DNA from: Candidatus Latescibacterota bacterium
GTDB lineage: Bacteria > Krumholzibacteriota > Krumholzibacteriia > WVZY01
DNA: 20,834 nucleotides
Direction of reading: 5' to 3'
Assembly (NCBI GenBank): GCA_963791045.1
Contig: CAWBQK010000016.1
Coordinates: 1 to 20,834 of the forward strand
The position numbers and the translations under genes were made by a program. The first letter of the stretch is position 1; every line of letters starts with the position of its first letter. A model generated the notes under the pieces. It made no database searches. It was not told where the DNA came from and saw only the letters and a program-made list of their open reading frames with translations. Shown in pieces: positions 5,835 to 20,834 of the stretch.

Positions 5835-7718
5835 ATGAGGACCACTGGGGCCACCGTCTCGGAGCTTGCATTTATATTCAAACTTCTTCCGCTTTTGCAA
5901 GAAGTCGATACCATCGACAGACTTTACAGGCTCTTGCTGGCCATCGTGACTTCGGGTCGGCAGTTCGGCTACGAACGAGCGATGTTGCTTGTTCCCGATG
6001 AGGGCTCCGGTGTGTTGAGGGGACGGTACGGGGTCGAGCGAACCGTGGAATTTTCCGGCAGGCCCGGTTTTGACGACATGGCCCGGTCGGTGTTCAAGAA
6101 TTTCGAACAGGTGGATGCCACCGACCTCACGGTAAAAGTGCGTTCGTATTCGGTTCCGCTGAACTGGCACCGGAGCGCGCTGGTCAAAGCGGCGAGAACA
6201 ACCTATCCGGTACTCGCGGAACGCGGAGCGAGTGAGTTCGCGACCGATACCTTTTTTGGTTTCTTCGGTGTTAAGAGTTACCTGGCCGTCCCCGTAGAGG
6301 TGGACCACAAGGTCGCGGCCATCCTTGCCGTGGATCGATCGTCGTTCAAGAAACGAGACTCGGTCGATGAGATATCGGTTCTCTACAGCCTTGTCCAACA
6401 GACCGCAATGGCGGCGGAACGCCTCCTTGATTCATCGGCAAACAAACGAAAAACTCGGGTGTTGACCAAACTTCACGAATCGCTGAACCGCGCATCGACC
6501 GACTCCGAATTTGAGGAGGGACTCAAGGCGATACTTGCGATGGTATGCAACACGGTGAATACCAGCGTCTGTCTTCTCAAGGATTACACGTCACAAAAAA
6601 CCTACAAGGCCGTGACAACACGGCCGCTTTTTGAAAACTCCGATGACGACGGATCGGTCGTCGCGGAGGGCTTCGAGGAAATTCTGGCGTTATCGGCCGG
6701 AACCAGAGAGGTGATAAGCGGGGACGGGGTGTGCGGCCACTTGAAGGGGCGTGCGGCCGACGAGATCGCGTTCTTCCACGCGACCCCGTTGGGTGTCGGC
6801 AAAGACGTTCTTGGCGCCCTTGGTGTATATACTGTGACCGCGGACAACCCGGGCAAGCACGATGACCTGCGGCCGGGAGACAAGAGTTTTCTCGATCTCT
6901 GCGCCAGGGTCCTGGCCTCGACCATCGAGAAACGGCAGAAACATGACCGCGTTCACCGTGTCGAGGAATTCCTTCAGGAAATGAGTTCTAATCTTGTTCG
7001 TGAACGCGAACGGTCGCGTATCGGCGATCAAAGCGTCGAGTATCTCGCCAAAGTCCGGGAAGACTTAAAACATCTCCACGAGATAGTCACCAGCGAGAAA
7101 GCGGTAGCCGCGCGGCTTCTCGAAATTACCGGACAGGTGAAGAAAATGCGGCGTTACAACAGCGATTTTGAAGACTCGGTGTTGAACGACAAGACCGCTT
7201 ATGTAATGACCGACCTTTACAAACTGACAAAAAGGGTTGTAAAGAAATGGCAGACGGCTGCGGCACAAAAGGGTATCGACATTACCGTGCGTATCCCCGA
7301 CAGCGGCCCGTCGCTACTGCTCGACAAGAAAAACGTTACCACGGCGCTGTCCAATATTCTTCGCGCGACGTCTTCGTTTCTTAAAGAAGGGGACAAGATG
7401 TTAGTGGAGTGTTCGGAAACGGAAGACCGTGTCCTCGTGTGCGTGGCCGACAACGGGGCCGGTTTGCCCGGTGATACGATCTCGAGGTTGTTTATGCCGT
7501 TTGGTGACACGGATCCTGAAAGCGATGACAAACGCGCGTTGTCGCTGGCTGGGGACGTTCTCCAAAAACATGCCGCCGAGATCATGATCAAGTCGTCCTA
7601 CAGTTGGAAGACCATTCTCGTCCTCAGTTTTCCCGTGGCGGCAAGCCGAGATCGACGGGCGACAAAAAAGGACCGGCGCCGTCGCACCGACCGGAGAGAG
7701 AAAACGCCTGAAGAGTAA
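5835..7718 (+). CDS. GAF-domain protein with a degenerate histidine-kinase (HATPase-like) C-terminus; probable pseudokinase
   Basis: Two GAF-like segments (RAMLLVPDE...YLAVPVEV...AAILAVDR and HATPLGVGKDVLGALGVY). G1 box VADNGAGL and F box LFMPF are present, but there is no recognisable H box or G2 box. Confidence 0.75.
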   Translation: MRTTGATVSELAFIFKLLPLLQEVDTIDRLYRLLLAIVTSGRQFGYERAMLLVPDEGSGVLRGRYGVERTVEFSGRPGFDDMARSVFKNFEQVDATDLTVKVRSYSVPLNWHRSALVKAARTTYPVLAERGASEFATDTFFGFFGVKSYLAVPVEVDHKVAAILAVDRSSFKKRDSVDEISVLYSLVQQTAMAAERLLDSSANKRKTRVLTKLHESLNRASTDSEFEEGLKAILAMVCNTVNTSVCLLKDYTSQKTYKAVTTRPLFENSDDDGSVVAEGFEEILALSAGTREVISGDGVCGHLKGRAADEIAFFHATPLGVGKDVLGALGVYTVTADNPGKHDDLRPGDKSFLDLCARVLASTIEKRQKHDRVHRVEEFLQEMSSNLVRERERSRIGDQSVEYLAKVREDLKHLHEIVTSEKAVAARLLEITGQVKKMRRYNSDFEDSVLNDKTAYVMTDLYKLTKRVVKKWQTAAAQKGIDITVRIPDSGPSLLLDKKNVTTALSNILRATSSFLKEGDKMLVECSETEDRVLVCVADNGAGLPGDTISRLFMPFGDTDPESDDKRALSLAGDVLQKHAAEIMIKSSYSWKTILVLSFPVAASRDRRATKKDRRRRTDRREKTPEE

Positions 7719-7900
7719 TTTCCGCTGTGTGACCCCTGGCGGTTCCCGGCGGAGCCACTGGGCCGCCCAGGTGCCCCTGGTTGGAATCTGACCACCCTGC
7801 CCTTGGAATCCCGCCGTCTCCTCGATAGCCTGTTGTTGAGAAGAACCTCTTAATGAATTGTAATCATGTCGGTTAGGCGATTGTTTATCTGCTCTGACTC

Positions 7901-7915
7901 TGGCACGCCGTTTGC
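7901..7915 (+). promoter_or_regulatory. sigma54 (RpoN) -24/-12 promoter
   Basis: TGGCACG-CCGT-TTGC is a perfect consensus, about 90 bp upstream of ATG 8004. An AT-rich IHF-like TAATGAATTGTAA lies at 7851-7863. Confidence 0.8.
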
Positions 7916-8003
7916 CCGTAATGGGTGAATTCACAAACATTTCTCCCCCGGCACCGGCGGGGACGGGCGTCTTGCCGCGACCCGACGGTGGGGGAACCGC
8001 AAC

Positions 8004-9518
8004 ATGAACAGATTCAGCAAACATTTCCAGACGACGTTCGAACAGATCAGGGATCCGCTCCTAATCGTGGACCTCACGGGGAACATACGTGGAGCGAACC
8101 CCTCGGCGCAGGCGGTCCTGGATCTTGGCCAGAACGATCATCTACGCGATGTGGTGTCACTCGAGCGTAGTTTTGTCTTCGACGTAGAACTTCTGCTGTC
8201 ATTGATCTCCCAGGACACGCCGGTGGTCGGGCACCGCTTGAAGGATTCCGAGGGTAACGAGGCGGATGTCGTGGTCGATGTGCTGGACATGCCCGGCAAA
8301 AAAGGCCGCTCTCAAACCAAACTCATTCACATCAAAGATTTCTCGCCATTTCAGAATTACGAGCGTTGGAAGGACGAATTGATCTCGATGGTTGCTCACG
8401 AGATCAAGAACCCTCTTTCCGCCATGAAAAATTCGATGGGTATTCTTATTTCCCAAGCGAATGATGGGATGTCGGACGGACAGATAAACCTGCTCAAAGT
8501 GTCGACGAGAAGTATCGATCGCTTGACACGGCTTCTGGACAACTTTCTCGATGTGTCCCGGTTGAGCTCCGGTCAGTATGTCCCGGATCCTGATTGGGAG
8601 GATGCGAGGGGGTTTACATCGGAAGTCATAAGCACTTTCAAAACTCTCTTCAATGTTCGCCGGCAGCGGCTGAACTTCAGTGTGTCCGGGGCCCTTGGGA
8701 AAATATATGTCGACGGACCAAAGCTCGAACAAATACTCATAAACCTTCTGAATAACGCGATCAAATTTACACAGGATGACGGCGAGATCTCGGTATCGCT
8801 CGAGCCGGCAAGTCTTGAGGCGCTAAGCGATGACCTGAGGATCCTCCCGTGGAGCGAACTTGCGGATCTCAAATTCGTTCGCGTAACCGTGAAAGACACG
8901 GGCATTGGGATGACCGAGAAAACGATCGCCCACCTGTTTACCCGTCACTACGGGCAAGACGAGCGAACCGTTTCGAAGGGATCTCATCTCGGGCTTAGCA
9001 TATCGAAAGCCCTTGTAGAGGTTCAAAACGGCAGTCTTGAGTTCGAAAGCCAACTGGGTGTCGGAACCGAAGTCTCCGTCACGCTGCCCGCGGATGAGAT
9101 CACGTTCACGATACTCAACAGGGTCAAGTCGATCGATCGAGTATTGAGCCGTATGACGAGTCTTCGCAGGGAGCCGACATTCCTCGCCGTCCGCAAGGAT
9201 ACGCCGCGGGAATGGGAAAACTTGCTCGTCGGAAAGACGTCTGCCCCCGTCGTCAATCCGACATTCCAACAGGAACAGAACGGTGATGTTTTCATGTGGA
9301 CGCTTGGCGAAAGGCTAGCCGTGTCGCTGATCGCAGAAAGCGCCGATCAGACGGCAAATGACGGTGATTCGCGCCGGGTGGAAAACAAAACGGTTCCTCA
9401 TGATGGATACGCCGTCGTGGGCCAGCGGTTGTCGTCGGGGGACAGCCGCGTGAACAGAATCATGGGAATTGCATTGACGCACTTGAAACAAGACAAAGAG
9501 TTGACACGGGCGATCTGA
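8004..9518 (+). CDS. PAS-domain sensor histidine kinase (cytoplasmic)
   Basis: N-terminal PAS-like region (DPLLIVDLTGNIRGANPSA). H box VAHEIKNPLS, N box QILINLLNNAIKFT, G1 VKDTGIGM, G2 GSHLGLSISK. Confidence 0.92.
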   Translation: MNRFSKHFQTTFEQIRDPLLIVDLTGNIRGANPSAQAVLDLGQNDHLRDVVSLERSFVFDVELLLSLISQDTPVVGHRLKDSEGNEADVVVDVLDMPGKKGRSQTKLIHIKDFSPFQNYERWKDELISMVAHEIKNPLSAMKNSMGILISQANDGMSDGQINLLKVSTRSIDRLTRLLDNFLDVSRLSSGQYVPDPDWEDARGFTSEVISTFKTLFNVRRQRLNFSVSGALGKIYVDGPKLEQILINLLNNAIKFTQDDGEISVSLEPASLEALSDDLRILPWSELADLKFVRVTVKDTGIGMTEKTIAHLFTRHYGQDERTVSKGSHLGLSISKALVEVQNGSLEFESQLGVGTEVSVTLPADEITFTILNRVKSIDRVLSRMTSLRREPTFLAVRKDTPREWENLLVGKTSAPVVNPTFQQEQNGDVFMWTLGERLAVSLIAESADQTANDGDSRRVENKTVPHDGYAVVGQRLSSGDSRVNRIMGIALTHLKQDKELTRAI

Positions 9519-14800: not shown

Positions 14801-15239
14801 TATGTGTGACCTCCGAAGTGTTAGTATTCGAGCCCGGGTGCAAACAGAATGCACCCTGCCGTTAGCTGACAATTGCAGGATCGAGACCGTTCGGGGGGGT
14901 ATTTTATCTTTGGCCGTATTTTAACTTATGTTGTCACAGTCGTTTACAGGCGCGCCTAATTCAACTCTACCAGAGAACGTGCGCTTTGTCGGACGCGTGG
15001 GCACATCACCCAAAGGTGCGGTTTGAGGGCGGAATTAGTGCGCGAACACACCCGTGAGGGGGGGCTTTGCGGTCTGTGGCGGAGAAATCGAACTCGCTGT
15101 TCCCGGTCGCGTATCGTTGCGCCTTTTGGCGGTCAATTCGTAACGCCGCCGTCGCGCAGAGGGAATCGCGCCTGATATCGCGGGGAATATATCCAACCCG
15201 CCGGCCTGGAGGGAGGGTCCCCCGCACAAAAGTCGGGCG

Positions 15240-15268
15240 TTGACAAATGGGGGATCGAATGGCAATAT
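15240..15268 (+). promoter_or_regulatory. sigma70-type promoter of the tRNA-Phe locus
   Basis: TTGACA, 17-bp spacer, then CAATAT with an extended -10 TG, about 90 bp upstream of the tRNA start. Confidence 0.55.
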
Positions 15269-15356
15269 ATTCGGGCCTGGCGGAAAAGAATTCACACTGG
15301 TCGCGGTCAGGGGCTTTGGGTGCGGGATGATGGGGCAGGACCGCGTGGCCATTGGT

Positions 15357-15397
15357 GCGAAGGTAGCTCAGTCGGTAGAGCAACGGATTGAAAATCC
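15357..15397 (+). tRNA. 5' half of tRNA-Phe(GAA), truncated after the anticodon loop (integration junction)
   Basis: GCGAAGG-TA-GCTC-AGTCGGTA-GAGC-A-ACGGA-TTGAAAA-TCC gives the acceptor 5' strand, D arm and anticodon arm with GAA. No variable loop, T arm or 3' acceptor strand follows. Confidence 0.85.
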
Positions 15398-15607
15398 AAT
15401 AAGTCCGTTTTTTTTGCCCACGTCCCAACCTCAAGTAACACACCTAATTCGTTGATCCCAAATTGATTATCTGCTCTGGAGTCGTTTGTTCGGCTTTGTG
15501 TCTTCATGCGTGGTTTTGCGGAAGTTTAGGGTCACCTATATGGACACAACCGATTCTGGTGACGAGTGGGCACATCACGGAATCGTGAAGCGACGAGAAA
15601 TTTCCTC

Positions 15608-15635
15608 TTGACAAAACCAAGTCTCAAGCTAGACT
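15608..15635 (+). promoter_or_regulatory. sigma70-type promoter, possibly for a leaderless transcript
   Basis: TTGACA, 16-bp spacer, TAGACT, with an ATG 7 nt downstream (15643) and no Shine-Dalgarno sequence. Confidence 0.5.
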
Positions 15636-15642
15636 AGCGACT

Positions 15643-16266
15643 ATGAGTAGTACCACTGAATGGAATGAAGTCCTTCGCAGGTTTGATGACTTGTTGGAAC
15701 GAGTTCGGTTGATGGCGACTAGAACTGTGTTCCGAGATTTCGAGAGTCAAAGATGAAGACTAATCGTGAACCTGGCTAGAACGTGGGATTCTCCGACCAG
15801 ATATGATTCGGAACCCGCCGGTCCATGGTACGCGTCGGTTGTATTCATAGGCGAAATTGCATTCAGATCGGTGTCGTCATCGCCTTCAGTCAACACGGTA
15901 TGCCGATGGCGACGGGAAGAGGCATTGGATCATTGGACCGGGCGGCTTTTACGATTGTTACACGAAAAAGGGTTTCGTTTTGGCATTAACTGCAGATCCG
16001 ATCCTTGACTGGTTTTTGATGAAGAACACCCGGTAACCTGAGCTCGAGATGGGGGCTTACGGGACATACAGCTTTTGGTGTATGACAAAACGAAAAACAT
16101 GGGCGAGCAACTTGAAAAGGTGTGGGGGATCGACGGGAAAAAAAGTGCGATTGAGAAGCGACCAGAAAAAGCAATGAAGGGCTGGAGCGTTAAAGTATGG
16201 GCTCCCGAACGATATGGCGTGACCACCGGTCATCACGCTGATCAGATGTGAACAAGTTTACGATAA
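15643..16266 (+). pseudogene. Interrupted hypothetical gene (begins MSSTTEWNEVLRRFDDLLERV)
   Basis: Promoter-linked ATG and coding-like sequence interrupted by TGA stops. No family recognised and the extent is uncertain. Confidence 0.3.
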
Positions 16267-16382
16267 GGTTCGGATTCGGCGTCTTTTCAGGGATGGTCAA
16301 CGGAGGCTTTCGACCCGAAATTGTCGCGGTGAGCGCATTTTTTTGGGATAGATAAGATCTATAAAGATAGACATGAGGTCTT

Positions 16383-16562
16383 ATGAATAGGCGATATTTG
16401 AACATCAAAGAGGCGTCAACCTATACGGGATATACGGCAGGGCACAATATACCAATTCGTATCGAACGCTTGATCCCCGTCATAAAGAAACGGGGGAGAC
16501 TTCGATTCGACATCCGAGAGCTCGACGAGTGGATGGCAACGAGACCGACAAGATGTTGTTGA
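16383..16562 (+). CDS. Excisionase-like HTH DNA-binding protein (HTH_17/Xis-like), 59 aa
   Basis: GAGG RBS, then MNRRYLNIKEASTYTGY...LIPVIKKRGRLRFDIRELDEWM. The middle reads TIYQFVS in a shifted frame, suggesting a compensating +1/-1 indel pair. Too short for the ORF track. Confidence 0.8.
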   Translation: MNRRYLNIKEASTYTGYTAGHNIPIRIERLIPVIKKRGRLRFDIRELDEWMATRPTRCC

Positions 16563-16597
16563 TGACACCCACATCTGGCCCTAACTCTGGGGAGCTT

Positions 16598-17860
16598 ATG
16601 GATCACGAATCAGATCAATCGATCAAGCGAGACCCGATCAAAGAACTCCAAGAGGAGGCTATTTGTTGGGCCCCACTGCGGAGCGCCGGAAAACTCGAAG
16701 TGTTGAACGACGCCATAGCTCAGTCCGCATGTGAGGCGCTCGTGGAACTCTCCGACGGGGGAAGGGAAGACAATTCTCAAGTTTGAAGTGGTATCCGGTC
16801 TGTCTAGGCCCGGAAAGAGTATCGCAAGCGAGTGAGAGACCTGGAAACGAAAGCGCCGAGACTCAGAGTCCGCTGACCTTTCCCTGCATATTGCCGACTA
16901 CCATGCCGAACTCACGCGGCTGTGCGAAGCGGGAGACACCGATGGCTATCTCGAAACCCTCCGTTCGTTTAAACCAACATCGAAATCATCTCGCCATTCA
17001 GCCGTACACACGCGCCAATTACGAAGTAGATACCCGGTCTCGTTGGAGAGGGTCTTTGCACTGGGTTTGCCGAGCTAGACATCGTACGTATCAATCCACC
17101 CCGAGTCGCTAACGATAATCGGCGCTCGCACGTCACACGGGAAAACGGCTCTCCTCGTCAACATCATGTGCCAACATGATCGACCCAGTACACGGAGAAG
17201 TCGTTTGCGTTTGTCTCGTATGAGCACAGCCAAGACTACAAGCGTGTACGTCCGAATGTTACAACGTGAGAGCGGGGGTGACCTCGAACGCTTTTCAAAA
17301 CGCGAGAGAGATACATCGGTACATCCGTGAAGGCATGAGAGCGACAACAGCGACCTGGAACGCGCCCGGGCCAAACTCGAGGAGCTTGGGAAAGACCGAA
17401 CGCCTCTACATAATAGACAAACCACACGCGGTCGAGGAGCTTGTCGGATGTCATCCGCGACTTGAAAACACAAGGCGTGGCTGCGGTCTTTGTGGACTAC
17501 ATCCAGCCAGATTCCCAGCGACCAAGTCTCTCCCCACGCGCCAGGCGACCATTCAATTCATCAGCGACCAACTCAAGAACGCCGCGAAGAGGTACCACGT
17601 CCCGATCATCGCCGCGTCGCAACTAAACCGGGAAGGCGGGAGACGATCCGCGTCTTGAGAATTTCAGGGAGAGCGATGACCAAACATCCGACGCGCACAC
17701 GGTCTTGTCGTTGGTCAATACCTCGATGACCGGTGATGAGGACGGAGACACCGCAACGCTCAAGATCAAGATTCTCAAAAACAGAGACGGCCAGGTGGGA
17801 CGGACGATCTTGCTTGGACTTCGAGCAACCGACACAACGCATTGTCACTGGGAGCGCAAC
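16598..17860 (+). pseudogene. DnaB-like SF4 replicative helicase (Pgp1-like), multiply frameshifted as sequenced
   Basis: Motifs appear in order across frames: GLCTGFAELD (17051), LTIIGARTSHGKT Walker A (17121), FAFVSYE, VFVDYIQ Walker B (17486), PIIAASQLNR (17601), KILKNRDG (17768). GGAG RBS precedes ATG 16598. The ends are approximate. Confidence 0.85.
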
Positions 17861-17871
17861 AGTGGGTGCGT

Positions 17872-18994
17872 GGTGATAACAAAAACAAACGTAAGGACGG
17901 CACATCGTCATTGAGTGGAATCCACACACCGATCCCGCGCCGGACATTGGTGGGCTTCTCAATGATCCGAGCATAGACAGGGAGAACATCGTCGTGGAGT
18001 TTAGCGGAAACAGGCGGGCGTATCACTTGCCAGCGGTCATTGACACGCGGCACAGGGCACCGATTCATCTTGAGGAGCAGAAGTTTCCCAAAGACCCATC
18101 GCGGTCGTTCTTCGGTGACCTGTCGCCCGGGGAACATAGTGGTGTTCGAGTCGTGGGGATCGATTACACGCCAGGACTTTGTCGAACGGTGAACGCGTTA
18201 CAGCTTCTGTTGGCCTCTCCCGATTGCCGAGCCAACATCCTCGACGAATGTTATCTCACGACGGACAACGTCTATCGGTATACAGGTGTCGTGCCGGGTT
18301 TGTCTTTTACGCCGTCCGCGTGGTTTAGGGCGTGGGGTGTTCGGGAGCATGTCGGGCCCGACGGCAAGAGGCGGTTTCAGGGATGGGAACGCGGCAAGGC
18401 GCTCGAGGCGTTACACGATTGGCCAACATGCCCTTTTATCTTTTGTACCGAAAGACGGCCACGGTTGACGGCAGGCGGAAGACGTTCACGGTCAAAACAC
18501 TCGAGCACATCATAAAGCTCTCCGAAGTGTTCGACGGGGAACTCACGGACCGCGACATCGTTTCCCTCAGTGGTTCCACTCACGACACTGTGTCGCCCGT
18601 CCTCATTGGCGTGCAGCTCAAACCGATTTGGGTGGACGGCATCGATAACTACTTCGTCTTAAAACCCCCGAGATACTTGAGCGAGATCCGCGAACACGCG
18701 AAGGGCTCCAAATTTCCGTATGGATTCATCGAACGACTTCTCATCGAGACAGCCAAGCGCCACCGAAAAGACAAGGGGCTCGTGATGGTTTCTAAGCCAC
18801 TCACGTTGGCGTCAGAGCTACGCATGGACGGGTGGATTCGGAAACGCCAGTGGAAGCGGATTCAGGACACGCTTGACTGGTGTGGAGAGATCGCCCAGGA
18901 GCTTGGTTACGTCGAACGGATTTCCACGCGCACCCGAGGTGGGGAACTGCGGTACGAGATCATCTTGAACCCGAGGAAGGTGACGGGTGACTAA
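17872..18994 (+). CDS. Homologue of Chlamydia plasmid protein Pgp2 (pGP2-D; putative replication initiator), frameshift near 18420
   Basis: Joining ORFs 17994-18515 and 18332-18994 gives colinear motifs matching recalled Pgp2: RAPIHLEEQKF, VVGID, ALQLLL, ALEALHDLANMPF, PIWVDGIDNYFVLKP, SKFPYGFIE, LASELRM..RQWKRI..CGEIAQELG. The start is uncertain (frame open from about 17895). Confidence 0.8.
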
Positions 18995-18996
18995 GG

Positions 18997-19048
18997 GGAC
19001 GCCACTGTTGGTAGCAAAGTACGCCACTATTGGTAGCAAGCGGTGCCA
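18997..19048 (+). repeat. Tandem 22-bp direct repeats (2 full + 1 partial), putative iterons/origin
   Basis: GGACGCCACTGTTGGTAGCAAA (18997-19018) and GTACGCCACTATTGGTAGCAAG (19019-19040), plus an in-register GCCA at 19045. The array begins 2 bp after the Pgp2-like stop. Confidence 0.75.
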
Positions 19049-19577
19049 GAACTCGCAACACCGCAAAGAGTTACAAGGCCAAATTTCGCTTAGGTATTCT
19101 TTAGGAATACAGAAAGAGACGACGGCTCTCGCTATGCGTCGCCGTCTATTTGAGGCGGTAAACGCACCAAACCACGCCATATGTCAACATCTCGACACCC
19201 GCCTGGCAGCGACAAAGCTGTCTAACCCGTTACCACGCACAATAATGGCCCGCCGTTGCCGCCCTAAGCCCTTGTCAATTCGTACCTTAGAAAACCAAAA
19301 GAGCCTGTTTTTGATTGTGGATTGTATGCGGAATAGCGGAAGGAATTACGGCGCTTGCAGTTATACGATCAGCGGACTAATTGCGAGAAAGTTGAACGGA
19401 CTTAACCTATTGTCACATAAAGAAATAACCCCCCTAGTTAACATAATGGGGATTAGACGCCACGCCAACGAGAGAGGGGATTATCCGGTATACCGCACGG
19501 GGAAGGGCTCCTACCAACGATTTACCGCCGGAATTCTCACACATCGCCCGTTGCGTGTCAAGCGTGGAAGCGCTCGA

Positions 19578-20015
19578 TCACTTGTTGCCGTCGTACTTGC
19601 CTTTCACACCGCCCCAGGTGTTTTCCTGTGCCGGTACCGTGCCGCCTGGCCCCCACCGACCACAACTTACCCACTCCGGCGGTTGCGTGTCATCCCTGAG
19701 CATCCACGCGTATCCGTCTTGGGTGATTATCGAACCGTGAGACCAGAACTTGATGTTGGACACGGGAGCGGGAAGCTCGTTTGGAATCGAAAATCTTTCC
19801 TCGGCTGGTACCCACTTGGGATTGAACGTGCCGTCAGGATCTTTAAGCTCAATGACCCATGTCCGTCCAAATTCATCGAGTGCCAAGTAACCACCACCCG
19901 CGATGATTCCAGGTCCCGGGAACACTCCGGTTGCCTCGCTTGCGGGCATGGTCCACTGCGTCACGACGATTCCTACGAGTACACCAATCGTGATGTAGAG
20001 CAATCGATTCTTCAC
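19578..20015 (-). CDS. Small secreted protein with C-terminal TWGxxK motif
   Basis: GGAGG RBS and GTG start, N-terminal signal/TM segment (MKNRLLYITIGVLVGIVV), C-terminus VPAQENTWGGVKGKYDGNK. Confidence 0.8.
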   Translation of the reverse strand: MKNRLLYITIGVLVGIVVTQWTMPASEATGVFPGPGIIAGGGYLALDEFGRTWVIELKDPDGTFNPKWVPAEERFSIPNELPAPVSNIKFWSHGSIITQDGYAWMLRDDTQPPEWVSCGRWGPGGTVPAQENTWGGVKGKYDGNK

Positions 20016-20030: not shown

Positions 20031-20349
20031 TTATTTGTCGCCGTCGTACTTGCCCTTGATGTTACCCCACGTTTCCGGGGCCACGGGAACCTGGCCCATT
20101 TCGCCGGTCCAGAAGTTGCCGAGGTAGGTTGCCGGTTGGGTGTAGGGAGAGGTCAAATTAGACCGTTGATTAAAATACGCATCGCCGGTGTCAGTAATAA
20201 CATATTCCGTATCCGACCAGGTGGCGTATCCGGGCAATCGAACTCCCCACTTGCGCCTGTACAGTTCGCCTCCTCGAGATGAAACCCGATCATCGCAGAC
20301 ACCATCAGACAAAGCACTCCAATCCAGAGCACACTAATCGTTTCGCCAT
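20031..20349 (-). CDS. Small secreted protein with C-terminal TWGxxK motif (two apparent frameshifts)
   Basis: GGAGG RBS at 20356-20360 and ATG at 20349 (MAKRL). The hydrophobic VLWIGVLCLMVSAMIGF is in one frame and the body ending VPVAPETWGNIKGKYDGDK is in another. Confidence 0.65.
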
Positions 20350-20427: not shown

Positions 20428-20834
20428 ATGGATTCATCCAACCCCGTTGCCACGAAGGACGCAGGCGGTCGACCACCGTCACACGGTCTCTACCAGTACC
20501 TTTCCCTCAACACCGACCACTGGCCCGAGGAGATGCGGAACACCTACACCGCACGGTACACGCAGCTAATGAACCTCGAGCATGTGGACCAGGAGCTAGA
20601 TGCGGGCCTTGTGTCGCAAGTCTCACGTTACGAGGTGTTGTTGGATCAGGTGTGGGGTTTTCTCGCTGAGAATGGCCTGTTTGACGCCAATGGGAACCAT
20701 CACGCGATACTCAACATGTTAGGCCATTACGAAAACTCACTCACTCGGATGTACGACAAGCTAGGACTCACACCCGAGAGCCGAAAGCGACTGGTGTGGC
20801 TAAGAAGAAAAAAGGATTGTGGAGTCACTGGAGC
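20428..20834 (+). CDS. Phage terminase small subunit, P27 family; 3'-truncated by the window edge
   Basis: AGGAGGT RBS and ATG at 20428. Translation: MDSSNPVATKDAGGRPP...YEVLLDQVWGFLAENGLFDANGNHHAIL...LTRMYDKLGLTPESRKRL. LGLTPxSRxRL is the P27 TerS signature. Absent from the ORF track because there is no stop in the window. Confidence 0.75.
   Translation, partial: MDSSNPVATKDAGGRPPSHGLYQYLSLNTDHWPEEMRNTYTARYTQLMNLEHVDQELDAGLVSQVSRYEVLLDQVWGFLAENGLFDANGNHHAILNMLGHYENSLTRMYDKLGLTPESRKRLVWLRRKKDCGVTG

Follow-up and report, generated by a model that had tools for sequence, protein, structure and literature searches.

What are the short direct repeats that stand immediately behind a Pgp2-like gene in a Candidatus Latescibacterota genome? 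The gene lies on contig C16, which was analysed in its entirety (the window, 20,834 nucleotides) and is part of an assembly of 21 contigs and 3.66 Mb with a completeness of 80.9%. Its product resembles Pgp2 of chlamydial plasmids, and its stop codon is followed by two tandem 22-bp units and a degenerate third. The preliminary description of this DNA read the repeats as iterons of a Pgp2-type initiator and proposed that initiator and binding site had been conserved together. Both proposals are supported, mainly by evidence that the preliminary description did not have. We give a probability of about 0.72 to the reading that the two units, with the degenerate third, are iterons, that is, cognate sites of the Pgp2-family replication initiator (Rep) encoded upstream, with the mechanism outlined below and a theta-type origin included. 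On the sequence evidence, the most likely role of the units is that of an origin, or failing that of a site bound by Rep, in a mobile element that is joined to the chromosome.

Tandem Repeats Finder (TRF) reports a single array in the window, at 18998-19039 (period 22, 1.9 copies, 90% matches, score 63). It begins 4 bp after the stop codon (18992-18994) of the Pgp2-like open reading frame (ORF). Copy 1 (GACGCCACTGTTGGTAGCAAAG) lies at 18998-19019 and copy 2 (TACGCCACTATTGGTAGCAAGC) at 19020-19041, both on the plus strand; in the phase of the preliminary description (18997-19018 and 19019-19040) the units are identical at 19 of 22 positions, as had been stated. They share the exact 19-nt core ACGCCACTRTTGGTAGCAA, which occurs exactly twice (18999-19017 and 19021-19039, 22 bp apart). 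With up to 3 mismatches no additional match was found in the window, none of 100 shuffles gave two matches, and a search of the whole 3.66-Mb assembly found no further copy. A partial third repeat had also been described. An in-phase unit is present at 19042-19063 (plus strand), but it is weak, matching copy 1 at 11 and copy 2 at 10 of 22 positions, where at least 11/22 is reached by 0.9% of random 22-mers from the window. Dispersed copies do not exceed chance: 24 window matches of at least 12/19, both iterons included, were found and 22.8 expected. No terminator-like site was seen on the array (DNA fold z -1.39, not significant), and no tRNA or Rfam match was found anywhere in the window. An AT-rich stretch at 19065-19125 is a candidate DNA-unwinding element. 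The AT fraction peaks 40-80 bp downstream of the array, at 0.65-0.68 in 40-nt windows at 19070-19080; the mean of the window is 0.45 and its maximum 0.72.

The array is retained in DNA from other samples. Contigs from four other studies were aligned on 18300-19400, a range in which the frame-change site near 18420 (see below) falls outside their coverage. No sequencing run screened contained more than 0.10 of the sampled words. Two of the contigs, X2 (18800-19045) and X3 (18864-19065), each from a different study, run through the array with 0 gaps and span both copies. The two-copy count is thus reproduced and not the product of a collapsed repeat, a point that the preliminary description had proposed to check. 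In both contigs there is no listed difference from 18969 onward, against 11 listed in the adjoining coding part of each; had the tails of X2 and X3 changed at the coding rates, they would show about 5 and about 10 differences, respectively. A further two differences in X2 and one in X3 are unlisted, and the listed ones reach within 27 nt of a contig end. The unlisted differences are probably nearer the contig ends, and in X3 probably outside both good copies. The flanking coding DNA of these contigs differs at about 7-10% of positions. Among the distinct differences inside the ORF, 12 of 18 fall at codon position 3 (binomial p 0.004) and 12 of 18 are synonymous, an excess that indicates purifying selection on the rep frame.

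The gene upstream of the array is a divergent relative of pgp2. A TBLASTN search of the plasmid database PLSDB with the ORF returned 121 records: 112 from Chlamydia, 5 from Chlamydiifrater, 1 from Chlamydophila and 3 from Nitratidesulfovibrio, the last at chance level (E 7 for the one listed). Query coverage is at least 80% in 111 of the 121, and identity to pGP2-D of Chlamydia plasmids is about 30% (E 4e-16 to 5e-15). With chlamydial Pgp2 as the query, residues 11-144 match 18054-18455 (plus strand, E 6e-15), where the position of the beta-hairpin is included, and residues 112-312 match 18356-18937 in another frame. Residues 11-312 of 353 are thus covered, in two frames, with a frame change near 18419-18422. 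The second part belongs to the ORF at 18332-18994 (plus strand), which holds the C-terminal two thirds of the protein, including the second winged-helix (WH2) DNA-binding domain. A profile of the Pgp2 family matches the two parts of the window with E-values of 1.5e-65 and 6.6e-17, the latter for the N-terminal part. The functional beta-hairpin of C. trachomatis Pgp2 is given as R108-F118 (PMC11895440); in the alignment, RYKTSRNKYEF of C. trachomatis stands opposite REHVGPDGKRRF in the window, a basic counterpart of the same length.

Family databases say little about this protein. Pfam, NCBIfam and PHROGs gave no family for the window ORF and none for 30 relatives except one DUF2200 match below the cutoff, and a word-indexed protein search with the ORF returned only the ORF itself. 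NCBIfam also gave nothing for C. trachomatis Pgp2, and the Pgp2 family has no curated model in Pfam or NCBIfam. In RefSeq, the C. trachomatis protein (L003:2928-3992) is named 'DUF5597 domain-containing protein'; its DUF5597 match falls short of the Pfam cutoff (20 vs 23 bits, E 8e-4), and C. pneumoniae Pgp2 lacks the match. The predicted fold of the family and of the window ORF is RepE/pi-like, with a WH1-WH2 arrangement. A non-chlamydial member (P0019) was predicted with a mean confidence (pLDDT) of 90.6, and every top row of its Foldseek search is RepE or RctB, with a probability of about 1 and yet an E-value of 1.2e-3 or weaker.

Relatives of the gene occur on contigs assigned to groups other than Chlamydiota, and most of those with sequenced downstream DNA carry an array near the rep stop codon. 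An exhaustive phmmer search gave 132 representatives at E <=1e-3 and 62 at <=1e-10, and genome contigs were searched with a profile built from a 12-row alignment. Thirty loci were analysed, 14 from named genomes and 16 from metagenomes. Many family members are about 600 aa long; the Pgp2-like part is then the C-terminal 330-350 aa, and the N-terminal extension (about 250-300 aa) matches nothing in Pfam (P0002-P0010 and others; L028:2831-4648, L029:2837-4741, L030:2663-4414). The gene was absent from the 207 other genomes of the host phylum (208 scanned). Arrays were counted from -50 to +1000 bp around the rep stop in the 23 loci that are not of chlamydial type and have downstream DNA. Six chlamydial-type plasmids (L017, L021, L022, L024, L025, L026), in which the array is far from pgp2, and one locus that ends at the match (L035) were left out of the count.

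The preliminary description had suggested looking for 22-bp arrays beside other Pgp2 homologues, and they were found. An array of period 21-24 is present in the counted zone of 15/23 loci at any score of at least 50, of 13/23 at a score of at least 90, and of 11/23 at a score of at least 150. In the remaining 137,199 bp of the same loci there is no array with a score of at least 150. Of the 17 arrays that related loci have in this zone, 13 are of period 22, and the copy number is mostly about 4 (3.0-8.3 at a score of at least 90). In six loci (L014, L028, L029, L030, L031, L033) the array starts between -39 and +29 from the stop codon, and the window's offset of +4 falls within this range. The related loci also have 40-mers with 0.75-0.97 AT within 200 bp downstream of their arrays. 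Upstream, they encode a DnaB helicase that is often fused to a Toprim or Prim-Pol primase, and the other neighbours are plasmid-like (ParA, ParB, tyrosine recombinases).

Several relatives depart from this simple layout. In a metagenome locus (L041:854-976) a 33-bp array of 3.7 copies, in place of a 22-bp array, begins 1 bp after the Pgp2-like stop. L019 (6747-6948), L020 (6749-6944) and L023 (2548-2656) have two tiers: copies spaced 42-43 bp apart directly behind rep are followed, at a distance given as about 500-730 bp or about 280-450 bp, by a tight 22-bp array. In L016, a contig from a Sericytochromatia metagenome-assembled genome (MAG), another, iteron-like array (7423-8305, 883 bp; 37 repeats of a 24-bp unit) starts about 150 bp past the four 22-bp iterons, with which it has the core GTCTACCCAAATCTGTAGGT in common. 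Among the chlamydial-type loci, L025 is filed under a Chlamydiaceae MAG and L024 under a Clostridia MAG. L024 is a complete chlamydial-type plasmid with pgp1-pgp8 at 54-86% identity and the chlamydial unit, so the bin label of a contig this small cannot be relied on.

Across the family, the repeat unit follows the protein. Rep identity and unit similarity are correlated over 19 loci (Mantel test, Spearman r 0.61, p 2e-4), and also with near-duplicates dropped (r 0.52, p 0.002); L015 (period 23), L041 (period 33), weak arrays and loci with no array stood outside this test. Shared descent would by itself produce such a correlation, which shows that gene and site are inherited together and says nothing on binding. 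Between the chlamydial units and those of L030, L031 and L033, 13-17/22 positions agree, and the Reps of L030 and L031 are the closest to chlamydial Pgp2 (41-53% identity). Fifteen units, oriented alike, give the consensus CTTGCAACTnTnnnnGGTAGAC. The window Rep is an outlier, a short form and the most divergent, with 18-30% identity to all compared. Its unit still fits the family better than chance: against 18 family units the mean best match is 11.5 vs 10.0 +/- 0.43 for the null (p 0.003), and five family units match at 13 or more positions where 0.37 would be expected from random window 22-mers. Depending on the strand, it agrees with 9 or 10 of the 17 positions of the family consensus, in which the half-sites are CTTGCAAC and GGTAGAC.

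The direct match to the chlamydial repeat is a lesser argument. The unit given in the preliminary description (four 22-bp copies in C. trachomatis) proved exact: plasmid pCHL1 carries TTTGCAACTCTTGGTGGTAGAC in 4.1 copies with 100% matches at 6858-6947, and pMoPn carries the identical unit. All nine Chlamydiaceae plasmids examined have a period-22 array with about 4 units (3.9-4.4) of TGCAACTYTWGGTGGTAGAC, and the C. avium plasmid has a second array of 2.5 units in addition. The iteron is reported to be the most conserved part of the plasmid in Chlamydiaceae (PMC7259575). A C. suis plasmid with two repeats is also reported there (PMC7259575), and the four-unit count is on that account perhaps not strictly defining. 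The preliminary description further gave a 14/22 match in reverse complement. That figure holds for its consensus, but the real copies give 12 and 13/22 in reverse complement and, equally well, 13 and 14/22 in the forward direction, so the window unit cannot be assigned to a strand. The best summed score to the chlamydial unit (27/44) is reached by 0.36% of shuffled units (p about 0.004), and 14/22 or better by 0.6% of all window 22-mers. Taken alone, this sequence match is weak and only suggestive.

Compared with the Chlamydiaceae plasmid origin and its Pgp2/Pgp1 proteins (PMC11895440; PMC7259575), the window has a homologous Rep (about 30%) with a helicase gene directly upstream, the 22-bp period, the common words GC[A/C]ACT and TTGGT.G, and the beta-hairpin position. 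It differs in having 2 (or 3) units in place of 4, and its unit matches at most 14/22 positions of a chlamydial unit that is itself nearly invariant. The chlamydial array lies about 2.9 kb downstream of pgp2, after pgp6 and before pgp7, whereas the window array abuts the rep stop. Unlike the chlamydial plasmids, the window has 55% GC, is joined to chromosomal genes and lacks pgp3, pgp4 and pgp6-pgp8 on the contig. The uncharacterised Pgp2-like replicons L029, L030, L033, L014, L028 and L031 also have, in this order, a helicase, a Rep, a period-22 array and an AT-rich stretch; their units are about 4 in number and perfect or nearly so, and many of their Reps are about 600 aa long. RepE of mini-F and pi of R6K (PDB 1rep, 8aan, 2nra) share with the window the tandem direct repeats that adjoin the rep gene, but they have no detectable sequence similarity to the Pgp2 family and only 10-13% identity in structural alignments. 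Unlike them, the Pgp2 family has an extra beta-hairpin, as described in PMC11895440, and a helicase of its own. RctB of Vibrio cholerae chromosome 2 (PDB 5tbf, 5ubf) is a much larger, four-domain chromosomal initiator, and the likeness is in fold only.

If the repeats are iterons, the following mechanism may be proposed. Rep would be a two-winged-helix initiator of the RepE/pi type whose monomers bind units spaced two helical turns apart. Binding would distort and open the neighbouring AT-rich stretch (about 19065-19125), where the element's own helicase would then be loaded, giving theta-type replication of a plasmid- or phage-like element.

Several observations weigh against this interpretation. 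The window has just two good repeat copies (1.9 by TRF, plus one degenerate unit), and its unit reaches at most 14/22 against the chlamydial and other units while fitting both strands. When sequences are anchored on GGTAG, the two words shared with the relatives are 3 nt closer together in the window. The AT-rich peak after the array is modest (0.68). No DnaA-box-like site (TTATCCACA, <=1 mismatch) was found in 18000-20000, with a consensus that may not fit this host; such boxes are common at iteron-type theta origins, not universal. Among the related loci, 8/23 have no array of period 21-24 in the counted zone: L042 and L043 have arrays 1.8-2.0 kb downstream instead, L041 has its 33-bp array at +1, and none was found at L027, L032, L036, L037 and L039. 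As presented in PMC11895440, the assignment of Pgp2 itself is based on one deletion together with a predicted fold, and its binding to iterons is inferred there. Finally, the rep gene is frameshifted and the helicase is spread over at least 3 frames. On contig C5 (about 64200-65500, minus strand), the replicative dnaB of the host is well conserved in sequence and equally split over three frames, so the breaks in rep and helicase do not prove decay. The split dnaB points to possible indel errors in the assembly, which may also have lowered the completeness estimate, and the frameshifts in the window may be assembly errors of this kind.

Other explanations of the repeats were weighed against the same evidence. 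The units could be Rep-binding sites with a part in the control of copy number or incompatibility (titration, handcuffing) or in the regulation of downstream genes, with the origin elsewhere, possibly past the contig end, which is 1.8 kb downstream. Iteron plasmids often carry additional control iterons, the window has only 2-3 units, and the two-tier sites of L019, L020 and L023 and the second array of L016 show arrangements of this sort among relatives. In L029, L030, L033, L014, L028 and L031, however, the array at the stop codon is the sole array found. The window array is followed by an AT-rich stretch, and neither a second array nor a dispersed copy was found in the window or the rest of the genome. 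A control or regulatory site of this kind seems unlikely to us. It appears quite improbable that the array is a chance tandem duplication, produced by slippage in the intergenic spacer and unrelated to Rep. The array is short, with 1.9 copies and a TRF score of 63, its match to known iterons is modest, and the genome contains arrays of similar size and score (16 of period 18-26 at a score of at least 60, among them 5 of period 21-23). From the latter number, the chance that an array of period 21-23 starts within 50 bp of this particular stop codon is about 7e-5. Period and position are moreover those of 11-15/23 related loci, and in contigs of two other studies the copies both persist, with no change listed in them, despite the diverged flanks.

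The repeats might also serve another enzyme of the element, for example as a packaging site of a small terminase or as a recombinase site, since such sites are often short repeats. Tyrosine recombinases are present in related loci, and an ORF at 20428-20832 (plus strand), which runs off the contig end, resembles a P27-type small terminase (Pfam Terminase_4, E 9e-5). Its score of 23.2-23.6 bits is below the curated cutoff of 24.7, and no large terminase (PF03354, PF03237) was found in the assembly, which is 81% complete; a prophage reading accordingly remains unproven. Across the relatives the arrays follow the Pgp2-like gene, with no terminase seen among the scanned neighbours, and a search for relatives in viral contigs gave 139 pattern matches of which none was confirmed. 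We regard a terminase or recombinase site as very improbable.

The remaining features of the window lie on both sides of rep. Upstream of rep, at 17064-17815 (plus strand), the C-terminal ATPase domain of a DnaB-like (Pgp1-like) helicase is spread over three frames. TBLASTN with the L016 helicase matched 17064-17390 (frame 3), 17263-17649 (frame 1) and 17477-17815 (frame 2), and Pfam DnaB_C was detected at 17266-17658 (E 4e-7) and 17079-17330 (E 1.8e-5). The fragments end about 240 bp before the Rep match and just the C-terminal domain is recognisable; the order helicase-rep mirrors pgp1-pgp2 of the chlamydial plasmids. Further upstream, about 2.1 kb (14900-17000) contain no open frame of at least 150 codons and have the lowest GC fraction of the window (0.48). 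Apart from the start of DnaB_C, nothing in Pfam or PHROGs matched the 17 stop-to-stop frames of this region (14.9-17.0 kb), and it has no tRNA or Rfam match. The region lies between the gene of a surface protein sorted by the type IX secretion system and the helicase remnant, and may contain the left end of the element. The type IX sorting signal is encoded by the host, and the window, with its 55% GC, is joined to chromosomal genes. Downstream of the array, two adjacent paralogous ORFs on the minus strand (19578-20015 and 20031-20312, 145 and 93 aa) end alike in ...KGKYDG[ND]K, and a direct repeat of 50 nt with 72% identity is made up by their 3' ends; neither has a family match. No relatives of pgp3, pgp4, pgp6, pgp7 or pgp8 were found on C16, and pgp5/ParA matches are on other contigs. 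The missing Chlamydiaceae gene set and the array that abuts rep indicate a member of a wider Rep-iteron family and not a chlamydial plasmid.

Pgp2 was published as the chlamydial plasmid initiator in 2025 (PMC11895440). The main text of PMC7846284 mentions it a single time, among the core genes of chlamydial plasmids and with its function unknown, and does not contain the words 'iteron' and 'outside'. Full-text searches found no published report of the Rep-iteron module beyond Chlamydiota with co-varying 22-bp arrays, nor of a divergent, GC-rich copy joined to a chromosome. Contigs that carry the family come from Sericytochromatia and Syntrophomonadaceae MAGs, from metagenomes (35-59% GC) and from this genome. 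We lean towards the view that the chlamydial replication core (Pgp1, Pgp2 and the 22-bp iterons) is one branch of a broad, undescribed family of iteron replicons, carried by plasmid-like elements on contigs assigned to several phyla. In this view, Rep and site would have co-diverged without loss of the 22-bp period or of a bipartite site (CTTGCAAC...GGTAGAC), and the window would represent the most divergent branch, GC-rich and joined to the chromosome.

For this genome alone, the finding amounts to a probable iteron origin, of an ordinary kind, on a mobile element. For the family it has a wider meaning. A gene and a 22-bp array that travel together in many unrelated contigs, with the array following the protein, are independent evidence for the assignment of Pgp2 as an initiator. 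The loci also form a natural series of Rep-iteron pairs, with Rep identities from 18% to 79%, from which recognition rules could be derived with non-pathogen material. They suggest that relatives of the chlamydial plasmid replicon exist outside Chlamydiota, and this is relevant to the origin of that plasmid.
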